DNA of 20,557 nucleotides from assembly GCA_039586365.1 (NCBI GenBank), contig JBDHKN010000115.1:1-20557 (forward strand), read 5' to 3'. How positions within the stretch are numbered: position 1 is the first letter of the stretch; each line of letters starts with the position of its first letter. This stretch comes from Gemmatimonadota bacterium (GTDB taxonomy: Bacteria; Gemmatimonadota; Gemmatimonadetes; Gemmatimonadales; GWC2-71-9). The position numbers were made by a program, and so were the translations under genes. The notes under the pieces are model-generated. The model ran no database searches, was not told the DNA's origin, and was given only the letters and a program-made list of their open reading frames with translations. Of this stretch, positions 2,222-17,382 are shown piece by piece.

Positions 2222-3646
2222 CTATCTGACGAATACCAACGCATACTCGTGCGTCCGTATCAATCGCCGGTCACCCTTATCGAAAGTATGCACCCGCTTC
2301 CCGGCCCCGCTGTTGCGGCGGTTCAGCACAATCTCTTCCTTGACGCGGAATCCGGCCGCCCGATGAAGGCTGGTCACGTCGTGGTGTAGCTGGATCAATT
2401 CACCGTCCTTTTGCCGATGAAGGCCCACCACCCAGCATGACACCGCGCCCGGCTTGAGGATGCGATGTGTTTCCAGCACGACGCGGTTCAGACCCTTCAG
2501 GAAGTCGCCGTATCCTTTACACATTGACAGGTCTGCAGGTCCGCCGCGGTATTGTTCTAGGTTCCAATACGGCGGGCAGGTCAACAGGAAATCGGCGGAG
2601 GCGTCGCTTGCTATCTGCGAGCAGTCGCGGACGTCACCGCAACGAAGGAACACTTCACCCCCCGATGCGTTCGGTCGTGGCGCCATCGGTGCGCCGTCCT
2701 TTTTCATAGCGTCTAGCTTGCGGAGATTGTCGTAGGATTCGCGGGGCATCGCGGCGTCCACGTCCCGTGTGCCGTCGCGGTGCAGTGCGTCGCAGACACG
2801 CCCGGCTTCAGCCACGCCGAAAATCAGATCTAGGCTTGCCCGGAACGCCATATAGGCAGGCTGTGTGCCGTAGTCCTTAAAGCAGGGGAGGTGAACGTAA
2901 CGGTGCCGCACTATCAGCGTGTCATGGTCGTTGACCGTGAACGGGCTCGCGATGCACCCGAACGGTTTAGGGCCGCCGTGCAACCTGCATAAATGTTCAC
3001 CCGTCTTGAATGGGCACTTGCCGGTCGAGGCTGCCTGGATCTTGCCTTGCTCAATAGTGGCGCCGCGCTCCTGTAATGCCGTGCGCTCGCCCGGAAGCGT
3101 GCAAATTACTAGCTTGCCGTCGCCGCCTTCACAGCAACGCCCGTAGCACACATCGCGGATATATTCGGCGTCGCAGCCGTGCCAGTTGGTCGTTGCCCAC
3201 GTCGCGGACACCTTGATGGGGATATGCTCGGGCAGATCTACATAGCAGCATACGCCGTTTGCTTCGCACCGTTGCTTGACAGCCTCGCACTCGGCCCGCC
3301 GTAGCTCTACCCCCAAATACGCCAGCCCGTGCTTAGCGGCCATGATCGCCCGCGTACCGCCGCCCGCGAACGGATCGAAACATAGACCGGTCTGCGGCGC
3401 GTAGCAGTTCAGAAGCCATACGGCAACCGCCGGATTGAAAACACTGCCGCCCGCTTGAAAGTTGTATGCCGTAACTATCTCATGGCGCCCACCGCCATTG
3501 GCGCCCACATCGCCGATAGATCGCCGGAGCGTGCGTATACTTGACGCCTCGTCAACATCCCATACGGTAAACGGCCACAAACCATACCGTTCCTTTGCTG
3601 TTGCGGCTTCGTCAATCTCCTGCCCAAACAGGCCAACGTCAGGCAT
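2222..3646 (-). CDS. Amino-DNA methyltransferase (motif I before motif IV) with an inserted Cys-cluster domain
   Basis: DPFAGGGT (aa 91-98), GVE, GDVR and TCPPY (aa 356-360); GAGGAGG RBS; ~195-aa insert with YkgJ-like Cys pattern. Confidence 0.85.
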   Translation of the reverse strand: MPDVGLFGQEIDEAATAKERYGLWPFTVWDVDEASSIRTLRRSIGDVGANGGGRHEIVTAYNFQAGGSVFNPAVAVWLLNCYAPQTGLCFDPFAGGGTRAIMAAKHGLAYLGVELRRAECEAVKQRCEANGVCCYVDLPEHIPIKVSATWATTNWHGCDAEYIRDVCYGRCCEGGDGKLVICTLPGERTALQERGATIEQGKIQAASTGKCPFKTGEHLCRLHGGPKPFGCIASPFTVNDHDTLIVRHRYVHLPCFKDYGTQPAYMAFRASLDLIFGVAEAGRVCDALHRDGTRDVDAAMPRESYDNLRKLDAMKKDGAPMAPRPNASGGEVFLRCGDVRDCSQIASDASADFLLTCPPYWNLEQYRGGPADLSMCKGYGDFLKGLNRVVLETHRILKPGAVSCWVVGLHRQKDGELIQLHHDVTSLHRAAGFRVKEEIVLNRRNSGAGKRVHTFDKGDRRLIRTHEYALVFVR

Positions 3647-4610: not shown

Positions 4611-4656
4611 GCCCCTAACCTAGTTTACCACAAGGGTTTACGTTCGGATGGGCCTG

Positions 4657-4702
4657 TTGACTGGGGGTCAAGAGGTCGCTGGTTCGAATCCAGTCGCCCC
4701 GA
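4657..4702 (+). tRNA. 3' fragment of tRNA-Pro(GGG); att core, not a complete tRNA gene
   Basis: Anticodon arm ttga-CTGGGGG-tcaa, variable loop aggtc, T arm gctgg-TTCGAAT-ccagt, acceptor 3' strand cgccccg plus A; no D arm or acceptor 5' strand upstream. Confidence 0.9.
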
Positions 4703-4789: not shown

Positions 4790-5801
4790 CTACGCCATCT
4801 GCTTAGTCGCTCGCAGAGACTCATTGCAACAGAGCTCCTTGCACGCCGGTAGCGCCGGCAGCGACGTCAGAGCCGAGCAGTCGTAGCAATTGAGCGTCTC
4901 GCACGCCGGCAGATCCGGCAGCGCCGTCAGAGCCGAGCAGCCGTAGCAACAGAGCCTCTCGCACGCCGGCAGGTCCGGCAGCGACGTCAGAGCCGAACAG
5001 TTGGAGCAATCAAGCCTCTCGCACGCCGGTAGATCCGGCAGTGCCGTCAGAGCCGAGCAGCCGTAGCAATAGAGCGCCTCGCACGCCGGCAGATCCGGCA
5101 ACGCCGTCAAAGCCGGGCAGTCGCGGCAATAGAGCCTCTCGCACGCCGGTAGATCCGGCAGCGCCGTCAGAGCCGAGCAGTCGCGGCAATAGAGCCTCTC
5201 GCACGCCGGCAGATCCCGCAGTGCCGTCAGAGCCCAGCGCCGTCAGAGCCGGACAGTTGGAGCAATCGAGCATCTCGCACGCCGGTAGATCCGGCAGCGC
5301 CGTCAGAGCCGAGCAGCGGTGGCAATAGAGCATCTCGCACGCCGGTAGATCCGGCAGCGCCGTCAACGTCGAGCAGCCGTAGCAACAGAGCCTCTCGCAC
5401 GCCGGTAGATCCGGCAGCGCCGTCAGAACCGAGCAGCAGTAGCAATCGAGCCTCTCGCACGCCGGCAGATCCGGCAACGCCGTCAAAGCCGGGCAGCAGG
5501 AGCAATCGAGCACGTGTGTGCGTACCACAGCCTGGCGGCAGCAGTCATTGATTGCATCCTGCCACGTCGGATAGCGCGCCAGCAATACGGCTCGATACCA
5601 GTTGGTATCGTGCGGGTCATCGGTCATCAGCCGGATGGTCAACGCATCCTCCCCAGGGCCGGTCCACTCCCATTCGCGCCACGGCTCGAGGTCGGCAGCA
5701 TGCCACCCCATGTGCTGCTGTGTCGCCTCATGCGATTTCGCGCCGGCACAGACAATCTCCTCGGTTTCGATGTTTAACCACGCTGACAGAAATTCGCACA
5801 C
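4790..5801 (-). pseudogene. LRR protein copy A (11 repeats), frameshifted
   Basis: A 16-bp imperfect duplication (5219-5234/5235-5250) shifts the frame; removing it gives a 331-aa ORF ending SLRATKQMA, like copy B. Confidence 0.85.
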
Positions 5802-5865: not shown

Positions 5866-6561
5866 CTACGCCATCTGCTTAGTCGCTCGCAGAGACTTAT
5901 TGCAATAGAGCTTCTCGCACGCCGGTAGATGCGGCAGCGATGTCAACGCCGAGCAGTCGTAGCAATCGAGCCTCTCGCACGCCGGCAGGTCCGGCAGCGC
6001 CGTCAGAGCCGAGCAGCGGTGGCAATACAGCGTCTCGCACGCCGGTAGATCCGGCAACGCCGTCAGAACCGAGCAGCAGTAGCAATCGAGCCTCTCGCAC
6101 GCCGGTAGATCCGGCAGCGCCGTCAGAGCCGGACAGTTGGAGCAATCGAGCTTCTCGCACGCCGGTAGGTCTGGCAGCGCCGTCAGAGCCGAGCAGCCGT
6201 AGCAATCGAGCCTCTCGCACGCCGGTAGATCCGGCAGCGCCGTCAGAGCCGGACAGTTGGAGCAATCGAGCACGTGTGTGCGTTCCACAGCCTGGCGACA
6301 GCAGTCATTGATTGCATCCTGCCACGTCGGATAGCGAGCCAGTACCAGGGCTCGATACCAGTTGGTATCGTGCGGGTCATCGTGCATCAGGCGGATGGTC
6401 AACGCATCGTCCCCAGGGCCGGTCCACTCCCATTCGCGCCACGGCTCGAGGTCGGCAGCACGCCACCCCATGTGCTCCTGTGTCGCCTCGTGCGATTGGG
6501 CGTCGGCACAGACAATCTCCTCGGTTTCGATGTTTAACCACGCTGACAGAAATTCGCACAC
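5866..6561 (-). CDS. LRR protein copy B (6 x 20-aa Cys-containing LRR, MCEFLS N-terminal domain)
   Basis: ExLxCxxCxxLTALPDLPAC repeats; GAGGAGG RBS; GTG start. Confidence 0.9.
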   Translation of the reverse strand: MCEFLSAWLNIETEEIVCADAQSHEATQEHMGWRAADLEPWREWEWTGPGDDALTIRLMHDDPHDTNWYRALVLARYPTWQDAINDCCRQAVERTHVLDCSNCPALTALPDLPACERLDCYGCSALTALPDLPACEKLDCSNCPALTALPDLPACERLDCYCCSVLTALPDLPACETLYCHRCSALTALPDLPACERLDCYDCSALTSLPHLPACEKLYCNKSLRATKQMA

Positions 6562-6728
6562 GTCGGCACCTCCTCAATCCGCTCGCCGTACAGCGTGGGA
6601 TTTGTCCCCGGCTGCACGCCAGCCTGCTGTTTGAACCAAAACGCCACGCCTGCCATCCGACCTCCGTGCCGACTGTCCCGTATCCGGTCGCGTCGCACGG
6701 TTTGTCGTACATTTATTTTGTTTTTCCC

Positions 6729-6756
6729 TTGACACGCCGCCTAAATGTAGTACAAT
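6729..6756 (+). promoter_or_regulatory. Sigma70-type promoter of the rightward mini-operon
   Basis: TTGACA-16bp-TACAAT with an upstream T-rich tract; imperfect inverted repeat 6702-6715/6742-6755 overlaps the -10. Confidence 0.75.
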
Positions 6757-6807
6757 TAAGGTAGAGCGATGAGAGAAACACGGGACAACCACGAGAAAGG
6801 GCAAACG

Positions 6808-7035
6808 ATGAAAAACACTATGACACACGCCGATGAGCGAAAGAGCGAAATGCTCTTCTGTGCTGGGACCGGACGCTACAACATTGAGGTCGAGACTACG
6901 ATGATGACCGAACTCAAGAGCGAGACCCTCGCCGAAGCTCTTCAGACCCTGGTACATGCTGATGATGAGATCACTATGCGAGTATGGCACGCAATCGAAA
7001 GATTCAACCCGATACGTTTGGCGTGCTACGCCTGA
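6808..7035 (+). CDS. Hypothetical protein (75 aa)
   Basis: GAAAGGG RBS in a 36-bp leader shared with the next gene. Confidence 0.7.
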   Translation: MKNTMTHADERKSEMLFCAGTGRYNIEVETTMMTELKSETLAEALQTLVHADDEITMRVWHAIERFNPIRLACYA

Positions 7036-7071
7036 GCCGAAACCCGAGACAACCAAGAGAAAGGGACGACG

Positions 7072-7320
7072 ATGACTGTAACCGAACTCCCAAGACAAAT
7101 CAGGCGGGACCCGGAAACTGGAGGCGATCGGTTCTGTCGGCGCTATCAGGTACAGCGGCCAGGGCGGCCTGCGCATCTGGTAATCGTAGAGGTCTCGCCA
7201 CTGTCGGATACGCCGCAGGCCGAGACGTGCACCTGTCGCGGCTATAAATACCGGCGCGACTGCGCGCATATCGCCGCCGTAATGGAGACGAGAATGATGA
7301 AAAAGAAACGGAATGCCTAA
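7072..7320 (+). CDS. SWIM zinc-finger protein
   Basis: CTC-x8-CAH (CxC...CxH) motif; good RBS. Confidence 0.8.
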   Translation: MTVTELPRQIRRDPETGGDRFCRRYQVQRPGRPAHLVIVEVSPLSDTPQAETCTCRGYKYRRDCAHIAAVMETRMMKKKRNA

Positions 7321-7375
7321 CCCGAAACGGCCTCCGGGCCGTCTGTCCCGTGTGGCGACGGGGCACTGACGAGGG
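7321..7375 (+). ncRNA. Hammerhead ribozyme, type II
   Basis: ccc-GAAA-cggcc(tccg)ggccg-UC-tgtcccgt(gtggcg)acggggca-CUGACGA-ggg: complete conserved core, three stems, GUC cleavage triplet ending at 7343. Confidence 0.92.
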
Positions 7376-7395
7376 AGCCGAGGGAGAATAGAACG

Positions 7396-7605
7396 ATGGC
7401 AACTGATACTTGTCCACAGTGCGGCGCCCAGATAGAGGGTGACGAATGCAATAGCCCGACGTGCCGTCTTATACGTGAAGGCATCGGTATCGCCAACGAC
7501 TTGGAACGGTTCGAACGGGATGGCATCGATGGCCTGTTGGACGATATCGATAGCCTGTTGGACGATGGCAGTTTCGGAGATCAATATGCCCCGACCAACT
7601 CTTGA
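7396..7605 (+). CDS. Small acidic zinc-binding protein (69 aa)
   Basis: CPQC and CNSPTC; GAGGGAG RBS; 21-bp internal tandem repeat at 7525-7566 (IDGLLDD/IDSLLDD). Confidence 0.7.
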   Translation: MATDTCPQCGAQIEGDECNSPTCRLIREGIGIANDLERFERDGIDGLLDDIDSLLDDGSFGDQYAPTNS

Positions 7606-7759
7606 TGACCGACAACGACGGAGCAAACGCCTGCAAGTACGACTGTCGCCCGCTGAAGCTGAGGCGCTCGACCAAGTACGCGGCAAACGAACCGCCTCTG
7701 AGTTCGTGCGCGAAACGCTGCTTGTTTTGCTGCGTCCGTGGATGAGACGACGGCCATGA
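7586..7759 (+). CDS. Ribbon-helix-helix (MobC/CopG-like) DNA-binding protein
   Basis: RLQVRLSPAEAEALDQ...TASEFVRE pattern; GGAG RBS before ATG 7586. Confidence 0.8.
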   Translation: MPRPTLDDRQRRSKRLQVRLSPAEAEALDQVRGKRTASEFVRETLLVLLRPWMRRRP

Positions 7760-7848
7760 GTCAGAACGCTCGAGCCTGGCTCGTTTCCAGCCTGCTGTTC
7801 ATCGTGGCCTGCATGCTTGCATGGTCCCTGGTTCTCACCAGACGGTGA
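7756..7848 (+). CDS. 30-aa single-TM peptide (not in ORF track)
   Basis: MSQNARAWLVSSLLFIVACMLAWSLVLTRR; ATGA-coupled to the RHH gene; ends 3 nt before the integrase start. Confidence 0.55.
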   Translation: MSQNARAWLVSSLLFIVACMLAWSLVLTRR

Positions 7849-7851
7849 CGC

Positions 7852-8949
7852 ATGCCTCGCCGCTCGAAACCTTGCTACGACGCTTCCCGTAACCAGTGGA
7901 TTCTGCGCTACCAGAACACACGCCACTATCTGTGCTCGGGCGCCACGCCGGAGGCTGAACGGCTCGCCTGGACCAAGGCTCGGCAGATCATGGACGAGCC
8001 GACCGTCGGCCGGCCGCCGCGAACGGTTGCCGCTGCCGTCGCCGCTTGGTTGGAGGCTAACGGTACAAGTTGGCATCGAGCGATGCTGGCGCCTTTCTCT
8101 GATTGGGCTGAGGGTGTTACGCTGACCGAGATACATCCCGAATTTCTGGGCGAGTTCCTGAAGTTTCTTCAGCAGACCATCTATAGCTTCTCCACCATGC
8201 GACGACAGCTCCGCTGTGCACACGCCGTGCTGCAATGGTCGCATGTCCGCGGCTACCTGCCGAATCCGGTCCCGCCATTGCCGAAACTCCCGGCGCTCCC
8301 GCATTACTCCCGCGCGGTTGAACCAACCGTGATGCGCCGCGTTTTCGCTGAACTTCGATATCCATCGAAGCACATCTTGACATTCATGGCGGCGACGTGG
8401 TGTCGTCCCGGTGAAGTGTGCGGCTTGAAGTTCACGGAGATTCGCGAGAATCGCTGTATTCTCCGACGTGGCAAAACTTGGAAAGCGACTCAACGCGAAC
8501 GTTGCTTTTTTTTGAATGCCGAAGCTCGACAAGTAATCGCCGCTCAACCGTGGCGCAAGGGTTACGTGTTCCGAAGTCGCCTCGGCAAACCGTATACTGT
8601 GAGCGGACTCGGCGATATCTTCGGCCGCGCCGCTCAACGAGCCGGTGTGCAAATGACGCAATACCAAATCCGGCATACCGGCGCGCAAGATGCGATCAAC
8701 CGTGGCGTTCCCGTCGATGTCGTCGCAATCCAGCTCGGGCATGCGCCGGCTTCGGCCGCGACGCGCGACTACGTCAGTTTTTCGCAAGCACGTACGCATG
8801 ATTTACTCGAATCCCATGTCTCGCCATTAGTTCCCGGTCTTCACGAATCAGCGTTTCCCGCGAAGGACGCTTCGGACTCGCCTTCCCGCAAAACCGCTCG
8901 ACGCTCTCGGCGTAAAAGCGCCAAGGACCGGTCCCGCCGAGCCGGATAG
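7852..8949 (+). CDS. int: Tyrosine recombinase / phage integrase
   Basis: CRPGE, GKT, YQIRH (HxxR variant), LGH and RDY catalytic motifs; N-terminal arm-binding-like segment WILRY. Confidence 0.93.
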   Translation: MPRRSKPCYDASRNQWILRYQNTRHYLCSGATPEAERLAWTKARQIMDEPTVGRPPRTVAAAVAAWLEANGTSWHRAMLAPFSDWAEGVTLTEIHPEFLGEFLKFLQQTIYSFSTMRRQLRCAHAVLQWSHVRGYLPNPVPPLPKLPALPHYSRAVEPTVMRRVFAELRYPSKHILTFMAATWCRPGEVCGLKFTEIRENRCILRRGKTWKATQRERCFFLNAEARQVIAAQPWRKGYVFRSRLGKPYTVSGLGDIFGRAAQRAGVQMTQYQIRHTGAQDAINRGVPVDVVAIQLGHAPASAATRDYVSFSQARTHDLLESHVSPLVPGLHESAFPAKDASDSPSRKTARRSRRKSAKDRSRRAG

Positions 8950-9003
8950 CGTGAAGCTGTCCTTAGCTGTCAGAAGCGGCAGTGACAACTTAGCGCAGAT
9001 CAT

Positions 9004-9705
9004 TTATGTGCCCGTATGGTCCTCGTCGATTTCTACTGCCTCAATACCAGGAGGCGGAGGAGGCGGCGCCAGTACTTTTTCTATCTTGCTTAGGCATTCC
9101 TCAACCGTTCGACCCTTGTGATGCCCGACAACGGCGTGGTACATCGTCAGACGTATTTGACATTCAGAGCCGGGATGTGAGTTCACGTCAATGGAGAAGT
9201 TGGTATGCACATCCGGCCAATGCTCCTTCAGAAGCGCGCCTACCTTTTTCAGATTTATGCATGTTCCTTCGCGGACCCCCTCTTCTCGCGTCTTTTTCAC
9301 CATCGCCCATTCGCGCGGCGTCAAACGGCAAAGACACTCTATGCGGCCGCGGTCATTCACCCTCGCGCCATCGATATCGGCGCGACACCAAGTCACACCA
9401 GTGAAGTTCGCACGGCTGAGGTTCGCATCGCTGAGATTCGCAGAATGAAGGTCTGCATCGTTGAGGGCCGCACCGATGAGGTCGGCACCGCGGAGGTCGG
9501 CGCTCGTAAGATCGGCACCAGCGAGGTCGGCGCCAGCGAAGTCGGCGCCGGTGAGGTCGGCGCTGCTGAAGTTGGCGCAGACAAGCTCAGCATCAACGAA
9601 GTTCGCATAGCGGAGGTTGGCGCCGGCGAGATCGGCGCCGTTGAGCGTTGCGGCATCAATCTGCAGGAGCACTGCACCAGTATGTCGATGTTTGATCTCA
9701 ATCAT
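9004..9705 (-). CDS. Pentapeptide repeat protein with an extra C-terminal domain (start could be 9726)
   Basis: A[DN][LF]xx repeats after MIEIKHR; convergent with int. Confidence 0.88.
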   Translation of the reverse strand: MIEIKHRHTGAVLLQIDAATLNGADLAGANLRYANFVDAELVCANFSSADLTGADFAGADLAGADLTSADLRGADLIGAALNDADLHSANLSDANLSRANFTGVTWCRADIDGARVNDRGRIECLCRLTPREWAMVKKTREEGVREGTCINLKKVGALLKEHWPDVHTNFSIDVNSHPGSECQIRLTMYHAVVGHHKGRTVEECLSKIEKVLAPPPPPPGIEAVEIDEDHTGT

Positions 9706-11919: not shown

Positions 11920-12161
11920 CTATCGTCTAACACTAACTTGCCGGCTTCCATCACCGCAGCTTGAATCGCTTCATCATGCCGGTCGATGGCTGCACGAGTC
12001 CTCTCGCTGCTCTCGGCGCGCCAACATCGATGCACGGCCATGTACATCCGGTGTATGCGCTCCTTCGATTCTGGCGAAACGCGCTCCCAGTGCTTCAGGC
12101 ACATTCGCGAGCCCTCGAGTCGCAGTTTGCGGCAACCGGGTACTAGGCAGGGTTGGGTCAT
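11916..12161 (-). CDS. Small phage protein with C-x4-C...C-x2-H motif
   Basis: CLVPGC...MCLKHW; AAAGGA RBS; coupled at both ends. Confidence 0.75.
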   Translation of the reverse strand: MTQPCLVPGCRKLRLEGSRMCLKHWERVSPESKERIHRMYMAVHRCWRAESSERTRAAIDRHDEAIQAAVMEAGKLVLDDR

Positions 12162-12964
12162 GGTTGTCCTTTCGCTTCTAAGGATCTATCGCCTCGCGCC
12201 GAATTGTGCGCGCCGCACACCACCTCCATGAACTCCGTCGTCGCCTGGACACGCAGCCTCGACAGTTCGACGAACGTCTCTTGTGTTTCGATACCAATGT
12301 AGTTGCGTCCTAACTCGATAGCCGCCACGCCCGTCGTCGCGCTGCCGGAGAACGGGTCAACGACCAAATCGCCGGGGTCTGATGCGCAGCCCACAATCGG
12401 CCGGAGAAGCGCCAATGGGAGTTGCGTCGGAAATCCCTCTACTCGCTCTTTGGCGTTGCCGACGAGTCGCGGGATCTGCCAGACGTTGTCCCAAATCTTG
12501 CCGGTGGGAATAGCACGCTTGTCGTTGTACTTCGTCTGTCGGTCAGACGGCCTATTCACGGCATCGCCATTGAACACGAAATGCTTCGTATCCTTAACGC
12601 AGTAGAAAATGTGGCGTGAACATCGGTTGAAGTTGTTCTGGCAGTTCACGCCAAACGTCTCATACCATTTGATCCAGTTGCGTCGATGGAACCCGATACG
12701 TCGGAGTATGATGCCGAAGTGGTCAGCCCATTCGTCGCAGATCATCACCCAGAGGCTGCCGTCAGCGGTCAATGCAGTATGGCACGCTTCTACCCAGTCT
12801 CTACACCACGCGAGATAGTCGTCATCATCGCGTCGGTCCGCCTTCTTCCCGTCGCCGTAGTCGATGCCGATATTGTAGGGCGGATCGGCGAAGATCAGGC
12901 GCGGCGCTTTCTGAAGGTTCATCAGTTCGTCGATACAATCACCGTAGATGATTTGCGCCGTCAT
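12158..12964 (-). CDS. N6/N4 DNA methyltransferase (beta class)
   Basis: IIYGDC, DPPY, and later DPFSGSATTG. Confidence 0.95.
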   Translation of the reverse strand: MTAQIIYGDCIDELMNLQKAPRLIFADPPYNIGIDYGDGKKADRRDDDDYLAWCRDWVEACHTALTADGSLWVMICDEWADHFGIILRRIGFHRRNWIKWYETFGVNCQNNFNRCSRHIFYCVKDTKHFVFNGDAVNRPSDRQTKYNDKRAIPTGKIWDNVWQIPRLVGNAKERVEGFPTQLPLALLRPIVGCASDPGDLVVDPFSGSATTGVAAIELGRNYIGIETQETFVELSRLRVQATTEFMEVVCGAHNSARGDRSLEAKGQP

Positions 12965-13041
12965 ACGTTGGCCCATTCCAAGAACTCTGTGCGTTCGTCT
13001 TCAGTCGCCTTTCCCCATGCCCGCCGTCGCCTAGTCATACG

Positions 13042-13566
13042 TCATGCTTCCATTGCCCATGCCATATTCATCTGATGGTCTGTACGCACCACCCCTTCCT
13101 CGAATACTCCAAGGCAAGGTGTACTGACAGCGATAATCTTACACGGCACCAGAAGATTCATTGTTTCATATCCGTCATTCGGGGAGGGTCGGATAGGATA
13201 TTTCAGCAGCCAAGCCGGAACCCACATCCTAAGCAGAGTAACAGATAACAAGTAGTACTTCTTGTGCTCTGGAAGCACGACGGAAATCACGTCCGCTCCA
13301 CATAGAATCGCCCACCCTGCCTTGCCAGATGTTGTTACAGAGACCACCTCAATTGCCAGATTCCCGCTGCTCTGTGCTCTTCGGTCCAGTTTATACTGAA
13401 CATTCCATTCATAAGGACAGTGACGCGCACGGAAGCGACGGTCAATGCCCTTTTTGTCGGTCGGCAAATCAACGGGATCAATATGAAACCATTTCCGGTA
13501 AAAGGCATCTTGCTGTTCTTCGCCTTTGTCGCCCTCGCGCTTGCTGTCTGCGAACTTATGGACCAT
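13042..13566 (-). CDS. PD-(D/E)XK restriction-endonuclease-like protein
   Basis: GEE...GID...VQYKLD...GNLAIE...GW pattern. Confidence 0.7.
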   Translation of the reverse strand: MVHKFADSKREGDKGEEQQDAFYRKWFHIDPVDLPTDKKGIDRRFRARHCPYEWNVQYKLDRRAQSSGNLAIEVVSVTTSGKAGWAILCGADVISVVLPEHKKYYLLSVTLLRMWVPAWLLKYPIRPSPNDGYETMNLLVPCKIIAVSTPCLGVFEEGVVRTDHQMNMAWAMEA

Positions 13567-14587
13567 CTGGCACATCCAATGTCAACAAGTCTCTCCTCAC
13601 ATCATTCCCCCATACCGTCCATCCTTTGACGGCTTCACGACCGAACAATTCAAGGCGTGGTTGCAGGCTGACTTTCTCGATGATCTTGCGTATGGCATCT
13701 GGCTTGCGACTGTGCTTGCCTCGCTTGAACTTGCCCCAGCTCATTTGCCCATGTTCTTCAAACGTCAACTTGCCACGCACGCCGAGCAAGAGAAACTCAT
13801 GAGAGACTCGCCAGTAGTTGCCTATACCCATTTGCGGCTTCACCCACACGAAGCACGATTTGTATTCAAACCCCCAGGCATCGATGATGCGCTTCGCATC
13901 GAAGAGGAACGCATTCGTGGTCCATAGGTGCAAGTGTGCATTGTCCATGCCCAGGGCTTCAATCGGCATGTTCTCTGGCTCGCAAAGCCAATCGACAGTA
14001 ACCGTCTCGTAATGATTGCCTGTGGCTGCACGGGTTCCCTGATTGTCGTAGGCCCACGGCGGGTCCGCGTAGACTGTCGCGTATCGCTTGCCCGCTGCAA
14101 CAAGCGCATGCAAGTCTTCGACGGTACAAGTCTCGCCCTTGTTGGTGCGCTTACGCTTCTTAGCTTTTGCCAATGGTCTCGCCAAGCGCAACACGCCGGC
14201 GGAGGTCAGTTCTCCGGTGGGCGATTCCTTGACTTCGATGATATGGGCCTCGAAGTCCTCATCGGGCAGCAGCAGCGCGATTTGCCAACGGGAAGACTGT
14301 TTCTTGCCGATGCCGAGCTCGGCCAACGTGGTGACATCGTGGCACCGCGTTCGCTTTTGCGCCGCTCCCTTGCTTTTGTCCATCCCCTGCAGCAGTTCCC
14401 CCGCCCGGCGCTCGGCACGCAGCTTTACCTCTGCCACATCGTTTTGTACCTCTCGCGTTTCGCCGGCCTTCTTGCAGTAAAGGCGTAATGCCTCAGCCCT
14501 GTCATGCAGGGATTTCACGTCCGGCAAACTCGTCACTTGTGCGAGCTCCGCCTGTAGACGGTTCTTGATAGCAAGAGCGTTGTTCAT
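13556..14587 (-). CDS. MT-A70 family adenine methyltransferase with a phage N-terminal helical domain
   Basis: YADPPW, HLWTTN, WGFEY, HSRKP and LELFGR. Confidence 0.95.
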   Translation of the reverse strand: MNNALAIKNRLQAELAQVTSLPDVKSLHDRAEALRLYCKKAGETREVQNDVAEVKLRAERRAGELLQGMDKSKGAAQKRTRCHDVTTLAELGIGKKQSSRWQIALLLPDEDFEAHIIEVKESPTGELTSAGVLRLARPLAKAKKRKRTNKGETCTVEDLHALVAAGKRYATVYADPPWAYDNQGTRAATGNHYETVTVDWLCEPENMPIEALGMDNAHLHLWTTNAFLFDAKRIIDAWGFEYKSCFVWVKPQMGIGNYWRVSHEFLLLGVRGKLTFEEHGQMSWGKFKRGKHSRKPDAIRKIIEKVSLQPRLELFGREAVKGWTVWGNDVRRDLLTLDVPDGP

Positions 14588-17097: not shown

Positions 17098-17382
17098 TTA
17101 TTCAAAAGTGCGCGCGGCCGCTACAGCACCGTGGACGGCCGCGCGCGGGGGGTTGGCGGGCGCATCGTCGCCCGCCGGAGTGGGCAAAAGAAACGAGCCC
17201 CGCAGAGCAGATGCCCCACGGGACTCGCCCTCGGAGGGGACAGAAACCGCAATCAGCGTGAATGATGCCCAACTCACAAACAGCACCATCCACAGTCCCC
17301 ATTCAATCCGCGCAGCGTCTAACAGAAGGTCGCCCCCGCGTCTCTGTGCGCTGCGCCAGTCGTATCCGTGTATACCGTTCAC
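17098..17382 (-). CDS. Hypothetical single-TM protein
   Basis: GTGA coupling; hydrophobic WGLWMVLFVSWASFTLIAV; 3' part overlaps a GC hairpin. Confidence 0.5.
   Translation of the reverse strand: MNGIHGYDWRSAQRRGGDLLLDAARIEWGLWMVLFVSWASFTLIAVSVPSEGESRGASALRGSFLLPTPAGDDAPANPPRAAVHGAVAAARTFE
17104..17146 (-). terminator. Possible intrinsic terminator
   Basis: Perfect 11-bp stem gcgcgcggccg/cggccgcgcgc followed by ACUUUU on the minus strand (short U tract). Confidence 0.45.

Follow-up and report, generated by a model that had tools for sequence, protein, structure and literature searches.

The stretch of DNA analysed here (the window) is the whole of contig C76, which comprises 20,557 bases of a 5.44-Mb assembly with 132 contigs. 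Comparison of its two ends reveals neither a terminal overlap nor any 18-mers in common. The genes surrounding the locus of interest mark a temperate phage. The minus strand encodes a DnaC-like loader, a replication initiator, a Sak4-like annealing protein, a PD-(D/E)XK nuclease, a DUF1064/resolvase-like protein and several DNA methyltransferases, all of them convergent with the integrase gene (int). Three DNA methyltransferase genes are found on this one 20-kb phage contig, at 2222-3646, 12158-12976 and 13556-14587, all on the minus strand; two are of the N6_N4_Mtase type and one is of the MT-A70 type. No DNA match to the locus was found in the phage collection. The plus-strand block that ends in int contains the following features:

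6729-6756 (+): promoter-like TTGACA-16-TACAAT, 11/12 matches, candidate operon start
6769-7035 (+): 88-aa ORF (orf88), no Pfam or PHROG match
7072-7320 (+): 82-aa SWIM zinc-finger gene, PF04434, E 1.9e-5, 24.5 bits (cut-off 19.6)
7320-7383 (+): type II hammerhead ribozyme, Hammerhead_II RF02276, model positions 1-66 of 66
7380-7386 (+): Shine-Dalgarno sequence GAGGGAG of the 69-aa gene; G7380 is common to it and the pseudoknot strand
7396-7605 (+): 69-aa gene, zinc-ribbon-like, ATG at 7396, CxxC...C...C, acidic tail
7586-7759 (+): 57-aa probable ribbon-helix-helix (RHH) protein, NikA-like, E 0.0043, 17.6 bits, below the cut-off of 27
7756-7848 (+): 30-aa hydrophobic ORF, 36 aa if read from GTG 7738
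7852-8949 (+): tyrosine integrase, 365 aa, PF00589, 53 bits (cut-off 27.1), E 4.6e-14

The SWIM stop codon, TAA at 7318-7320, adjoins the ribozyme, which fills the 75-nt gap between this stop and the next start codon. A preliminary description of this DNA stated that the downstream genes overlap or abut as far as int, with no separate promoter seen. The gene junctions are as described there. The zinc-ribbon-like gene (7396-7605) and the RHH gene (7586-7759) overlap by 20 nt, the latter and the 30-aa ORF have the ATGA at 7756-7759 in common, and the int ATG at 7852 lies 3 nt past the stop codon of the 30-aa ORF (7846-7848), with all genes on the same strand. A scan of 6400-9200 that recognises sigma-70-type consensus hexamers only gave a single promoter-like site on the plus strand, at 6729-6756, which precedes all genes of the block; the interval from the ribozyme to int contains no such site. 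Shuffled sequence is expected to give 0.9 sites over this interval, so the consensus match alone is weak evidence for a promoter.

The integrase is a phrog_1 match (E 2.6e-33). Its only two relatives are 40-41% identical and are encoded on contigs of ~2 kb, and no relative was found in viral_contigs. A word-indexed protein search returned no relatives of the SWIM protein or of the 69-aa protein. The latter also has no Pfam or PHROG match and no PDB relative below E = 1, and the leads towards a zinc ribbon are weak. For the 57-aa ORF, the nearest language-model clusters are of the RHH, CopG and DUF3950 types at 0.90-0.92, values that serve as leads only, and a sequence search of the PDB gave no match. 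A relative of the operon as a whole was not found in searches with the DNA, the integrase, the zinc-ribbon-like protein or the SWIM protein.

The region upstream of the block contains features of its own. At 4649-4694 (+), between minus-strand genes and ~2 kb from the int operon, lies a tRNA-like fragment with an anticodon arm and a T arm, carrying GGTTCGAATCC. It is not called by ARAGORN, its Rfam tRNA match is weak (13.2 bits, E 7.5), and a 44-nt stretch of contig C78 of the same assembly is 83% identical to it. The fragment may be a phage attachment core derived from the 3' half of a tRNA. Between 4739 and 6354, fourteen in-register copies with a 60-nt period encode a 20-residue leucine-rich-type repeat, CSALTALPDLPACE..., which spans three paralogous minus-strand ORFs (4790-5110, 5010-5801 and 5866-6561). 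The N-terminal sequences of the two full-length repeat ORFs, 5010-5801 and 5866-6561, are nearly identical. The repeat ORFs have weak LRR_4 and phrog_21719 matches and look like duplicated moron or host-interaction genes beside the lysogeny module.

Anatomy and identity of the ribozyme motif

The window was scanned against all 4,227 families of Rfam 15 using cmscan. The only match at gathering level is to Hammerhead_II (RF02276), which is aligned over the full model at 64.1 bits (gathering score 37, E 1.8e-11) with no non-canonical pairs flagged. Extending the scan to E<=1 adds one sub-threshold match, to the ctRNA_p42d antisense RNA family at 17184-17231 (-), with 23 bits against a cut-off of 50 and an E of 0.56; it is probably due to chance. 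The parts of the motif, labelled according to the hammerhead core numbering convention, are:

7321-7323 (+): stem II 3' strand CCC, pairing with GGG 7373-7375; this open helix defines type II
7324-7326 (+): core G12 A13 A14 (GAA)
7327-7332 with 7337-7342 (+): stem III hairpin, 6 pairs including A15.1-U16.1 (A7327-U7342), loop UCCG
7343/7344 (+): predicted cleavage site, C17 being C7343 in the Rfam alignment
7344-7350 with 7359-7365 (+): stem I hairpin, 7 pairs, possibly also U7351-A7358; its loop has UGGC 7353-7356
7366-7372 (+): core C3 U4 G5 A6 C7 G8 A9 (CUGACGA)
7373-7375 (+): stem II 5' strand GGG, with G10.1-C11.1 being G7373-C7323
7377-7380 (+): pseudoknot 3'-tail strand GCCG, pairing with loop I UGGC 7353-7356

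Direct reading and the alignment agree that the conserved core is complete, namely: CUGACGA, GAA, the A15.1-U16.1 pair, C17 (an H17, not G) and the G10.1-C11.1 pair. All pairs in the stems are standard (7 in stem I, 6 in stem III and 3 in stem II). Loops cap stems I and III while stem II is open, which is the type II permutation. The ribozyme tail sequence is AGCCGAGG. In these respects the preliminary description, made without database searches, was accurate: it had recognised a full type II hammerhead, which the Infernal/Rfam check returned at full length; it had placed the motif between the SWIM stop codon (7318-7320) and the next ribosome-binding site (Shine-Dalgarno at 7380-7386); and its cleavage site, after C7343, is the site predicted from C17 in the Rfam alignment. 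The span of 7321-7375 given there is the core, from stem II strand to stem II strand, and the Rfam match extends it by A7320 and by a 3' tail to 7383 that bears the pseudoknot strand.

The assembly from which the window comes contains exactly one Hammerhead_II copy. There were no matches in 14 control genomes, and a search of 100 related genomes gave nothing at threshold and two sub-threshold matches of 29.7 and 30.3 bits. Among 26 hammerhead matches scored, the 64.1 bits of the window copy rank second, the top score being 68.5 bits. Given this score, the single copy in the assembly, the empty control genomes and relatives with sub-threshold matches only, the motif is real, far above chance and sporadic. 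Sporadic occurrence is as expected for the cargo of a mobile element.

The canonical fold lies 0.5-0.9 kcal/mol above the minimum when the pseudoknot is not counted: -28.2 vs. -29.1 kcal/mol for the 64 nt alone, -31.8 vs. -32.3 kcal/mol for 7300-7400 and -69.0 vs. -69.7 kcal/mol for 7250-7450. The plain minimum-energy structure of 7300-7400 is an alternative fold that disrupts stem III, with a z-score of -0.46; this result is uninformative for a ribozyme that relies on tertiary contacts. When the seven closest hammerheads were aligned with MAFFT, the gaps in both stem I and stem III fell out of register. Thermodynamic folding was also used to examine the ribosome-binding site. The calculated probability that the Shine-Dalgarno sequence (7380-7386) is unpaired does not rise from the uncut RNA to the 3' product. 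Translation gated by cleavage was considered and rejected, as folding shows no consistent opening of the ribosome-binding site after the cut, and for this reason we do not claim a translational switch.

Taken together, positions 7320-7383 are, on the evidence of primary sequence and covariance-model alignment, a genuine type II hammerhead of very canonical form, located in a phage operon whose last gene is int. The arrangement has been described for phages since 2011 (Perreault 2011), and the present one is a new example and an ordinary case of it.

The tertiary partner of loop I

Loop I has two four-pair options in the window. UGGC 7353-7356 can pair with GCCG 7377-7380 in the 3' tail, and GGCG 7354-7357 can pair with UGCC 7314-7317 upstream of the ribozyme, the latter being the contact originally suggested for this loop (gtggcg with tgcc). 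The 3'-tail pseudoknot is composed of three G-C pairs and one G-U pair, and its 3' strand begins 4 nt after CUGANGA, where 3-5 nt is usual for the family. According to passages of Perreault 2011 (PMC3088659), loop I of the type II consensus pairs with the 3' tail right after stem II, the majority of members have at least four such pairs, and mutational evidence indicates that the pairing is required for fast cleavage. Those passages also describe one construct in which cutting the pseudoknot from 6 to 4 pairs made cleavage ~20-fold slower (PMC3088659). Since the pseudoknot of the window copy has only 4 pairs, one of them G-U, this ribozyme may be slow.

In order to compare the two options across the family, look-alike hammerheads were gathered by a core-and-stem pattern, which gave at least 125 stretches in viral_contigs, and loop I complementarity was scored on 122 distinct instances among the matches listed, the window included. 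Pattern instances are not all of Rfam grade, the gathering score being reached at the site in 8 of the 14 viral pattern sites that were rescanned. For these 122 instances among the matches listed, pairing of loop I with the 16 nt after CUGANGA has a mean helix score of 11.36, compared with a mean of 8.83 for permuted tails and 9.66 for the highest of 50 permutations. Pairing with the 16 nt ending at C11.1 has a mean score of 8.36, against 8.33 for permuted flanks. Instance by instance, the 3' side wins over the 5' side in 93 cases, ties in 6 and loses in 23 (again 122 among the matches listed). Because pairing to the 5' flank is at chance level while pairing to the 3' tail exceeds its permuted control, the canonical 3'-tail pseudoknot is supported. 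The proposed contact with 7314-7317 is abandoned: it offers four pairs in the window, as many as the 3' tail does, and family-wide such pairing does not rise above chance.

Gene context of look-alike hammerheads

The pattern instances also show how these ribozymes are placed between genes. The nearest upstream ORF, with at least 40 codons open, ends a median of 2 nt before C11.1 in the 122 instances among the matches listed, and its stop codon lies 0-4 nt before C11.1 in 82 of the 115 instances among the matches listed. The next start codon that opens an ORF follows CUGANGA by a median of 26 nt (quartiles 20 and 36; 122 among the matches listed), and a Shine-Dalgarno-like motif, counted within 16 nt of the start codon, is present in 97 of 120 instances among the matches listed. 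The complete succession occurs in 85/122 among the matches listed vs. 9/122 on the opposite strand. With 2 nt from stop to C11.1 and 23 nt from CUGANGA to start, the window lies at the mode. The general feature is therefore the layout itself: stop codon, ribozyme, ribosome-binding site, start codon.

Six metagenomic hammerheads have the stem II and tail of the window, and all six exceed the Rfam cut-off (52.5-61.5 bits). An ORF ends 0-4 nt before stem II in each of them, and a Shine-Dalgarno sequence and start codon follow soon past the tail in five, the sixth being interrupted by the end of its contig. These contigs, of 1.1-2.1 kb, are too short to reveal a following integrase. One of these six closest relatives, L256, encodes at 398-643 (L256:398-643, in RNA-sense orientation) an 81-aa SWIM-like protein with C-x-C ... 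C-x-H, ~500 nt upstream of its hammerhead, which resembles the SWIM-before-ribozyme arrangement of the window.

To see which genes accompany the look-alikes, two samples were examined using Pfam. The viral_contigs sample covers ±3 kb around 74 loci among the matches listed, with 300 of 305 ORFs of at least 150 aa scanned; the five left out all belong to L083. In these 300 ORFs from 74 loci among the matches listed, PF00589 is absent at E <= 1e-5; four loci among the matches listed have serine recombinases and two have Mu-type transposases. The genome_contigs sample covers ±3.5 kb around 62 loci among the matches listed, with 150 of 205 ORFs of at least 230 aa scanned (34 over 550 aa and 21 others were left out). 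Here PF00589 occurs at one of the 62 loci among the matches listed (L132), on the opposite strand and ~1.9 kb upstream. The genes near look-alikes are diverse and include, among the matches listed, ArdA, ArdC, DUF932, GP88, methylases, antirepressors and replication genes, as well as the Mu-like phage genes GemA, DUF3164 and DUF7168.

These observations show that such ribozymes do not as a rule lie in integrase operons and have no fixed association with int. The suggestion in the preliminary description that the ribozyme may tune integrase expression is not supported, with PF00589 at 0/74 viral and 1/62 genome loci among the matches listed. Passages of Perreault 2011 (PMC3088659) place many bacterial hammerheads near integrase genes. 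Our samples do not contradict this, since they cover one sequence sub-pattern, matches listed only and a reach of ~3 kb. In the window, the link to the integrase looks incidental to a generic intercistronic processing element.

Several of the look-alike loci have features of their own. L017 has five hammerhead sites a few hundred bases apart (four at gathering score plus the pattern site), L014 has three (3 at gathering score) and L004 also has three (2 at gathering score), all being type II clusters. An ArdA gene starts 21 nt past the L017 pattern site, which fits the ardA association in Perreault 2011. On a phage contig, a fragment of an RtcB-type RNA ligase (L077:3-527, minus strand) lies ~2.5 kb from a type II hammerhead pattern site. 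Ligases of the RtcB class join 2',3'-cyclic phosphate and 5'-OH ends, i.e. the ends of hammerhead products; the L077 case is a single one and may be coincidence.

Predicted processing of the operon transcript

The motif is predicted to cut between C7343 and U7344, and we consider it likely that it splits the polycistronic message into two separately stable, translatable mRNAs. In this scheme the operon transcript would cleave itself between these two bases. The upstream fragment, with orf88 and the SWIM gene, would retain its stop codon, followed by 23 nt that close with the stem III hairpin and a terminal 2',3'-cyclic phosphate. On the downstream fragment, which carries the zinc-ribbon-like gene, the RHH gene, the 30-aa ORF and int, U7344 would be the terminal base, bearing a 5'-OH and opening the stem I hairpin, and the Shine-Dalgarno sequence and start codon would be preserved. 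We infer both ends from hammerhead chemistry combined with the sequence. From general knowledge of bacterial mRNA decay, a 5'-OH enclosed in a terminal hairpin is expected to withstand 5'-end-dependent decay. On this basis, and by comparison with engineered ribozyme insulators, ends of this kind should protect both fragments, and the int-containing half would be insulated from the fate of the upstream half. The ribozyme is best understood as general punctuation between the cistrons of phage operons, which here stands at the head of the half that contains int; it does not look like an integrase-specific regulator.

Other readings of the locus place the ribozyme differently with respect to int. 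The ribozyme could be active but irrelevant to the integrase, with int expressed mainly from its own promoter within 7384-7851 and the ribozyme serving the adjoining small genes. Temperate phages often have a separate int promoter, e.g. lambda pI, and the promoter scan recognises sigma-70-type hexamers only; yet no promoter-like site was found in the interval, and the four genes overlap or abut (20 nt, ATGA, 3-nt gap) in a manner typical of co-transcription and translational coupling, so that we regard a dominant int promoter in this interval as unlikely. A dedicated regulator of integrase and lysogeny, in which the abundance or lifetime of the RHH-int message, and with it the balance between integration and excision, would depend on cleavage, seems to us quite improbable. 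It would accord with the position of int on the predicted 3' fragment, 508 nt past the cut and behind overlapping genes with no promoter-like site between, and with the many bacterial hammerheads that passages of Perreault 2011 place near integrase genes. However, tyrosine integrases are rare around look-alikes (0/74 viral and 1/62 genome loci among the matches listed), the genes directly downstream are very diverse (ArdA, DUF932, GemA and methylases among the matches listed), and no related operon was found to show ribozyme and int travelling together. Literature searches listed no report of a hammerhead role in lysogeny.

Translation might also gate the cleavage itself. The stop codon adjoins stem II in the window, and lies 0-4 nt away in 82/115 instances among the matches listed, so a ribosome that has reached the end of the SWIM gene would sit over stem II, the GAAA strand and one half of stem III. 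It would thereby unfold the ribozyme, and cutting would occur only without upstream translation. We hold this switch to be very unlikely; if true, the fate of the int half would be set by upstream translation, an undescribed way to time integrase supply. We find it hardly credible that the motif is a relic without activity, or that it never appears in a transcript in the sense orientation. The single copy, the short pseudoknot and the lack of conserved relatives of the locus in our searches would agree with a relic, but all core nucleotides and helices are intact, the score of 64.1 bits is the second of 26 scored, and the motif lies on the coding strand exactly between a stop codon and a ribosome-binding site, the position taken by most family members. 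Processing of the polycistronic message into two mRNAs is the reading we prefer.

The locus resembles known systems to different degrees. With the type II hammerheads of bacteria and prophages (RF02276), as characterised in passages of Perreault 2011 (PMC3088659), it has in common the open stem II, the hairpin stems I and III, the canonical core, the loop I/3'-tail pseudoknot, the phage context and an intergenic site just before a gene. There is no structural difference from them, although the pseudoknot of the window copy, with 4 pairs including one G-U, is among the shorter ones and stem II has 3 pairs. The same passages report assays of tandem prophage hammerheads from three bacteria during in vitro transcription, and cleavage in vivo as well for the Agrobacterium set upon its expression in E. 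coli (PMC3088659). Clustered prophage hammerheads that flank single genes, in the ardA region of Agrobacterium tumefaciens, in Clostridium scindens and in Azorhizobium caulinodans, have the same proposed job, the processing of long phage transcripts into gene- or operon-length mRNAs, and the Agrobacterium region also has an integrase gene according to the legend of Figure S2 (PMC3088659). In contrast to such clusters, the window has a single ribozyme in 20.5 kb and hence no gene excised on both sides.

Functional parallels exist outside natural type II hammerheads as well. RiboJ, engineered from the hammerhead of a plant satellite RNA, is placed before a ribosome-binding site, where it removes upstream RNA, leaves a 5'-OH and a hairpin and renders downstream expression context-independent. 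Its effect has been measured. The window hammerhead likewise lies just ahead of a ribosome-binding site; unlike RiboJ, it is a natural phage element. In the case of lambda sib, a site downstream of int, cutting by host RNase III leads to decay of the int message. The likeness is a functional analogy only, in that the fate of the int message would be decided by RNA processing and not by transcription, whereas in the window the cut would lie upstream of int, would be self-catalysed and is expected to protect the message.

Processing of polycistronic phage transcripts is a role proposed in passages of both Perreault 2011 (PMC3088659) and a 2019 review (PMC6765202). In the wording of that review, polycistronic transcripts would be converted into RNAs that differ in stability or translation efficiency; its text on bacterial and phage hammerheads also holds their biological role to be still unproven and in need of more work (PMC6765202). 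Our analysis leaves the current understanding of hammerheads unchanged. It adds a clean, single-copy type II hammerhead, on the same strand as a tyrosine integrase gene and 469 nt upstream of it, from a little-studied bacterial lineage, and an operon with one ribozyme and one candidate promoter would be a simpler test bed than multi-ribozyme arrays. The regular layout is a by-product of wider reach than this single locus: the ribozymes fit cistron boundaries so closely that hardly a base is left over, and both cistrons would survive the cut intact.
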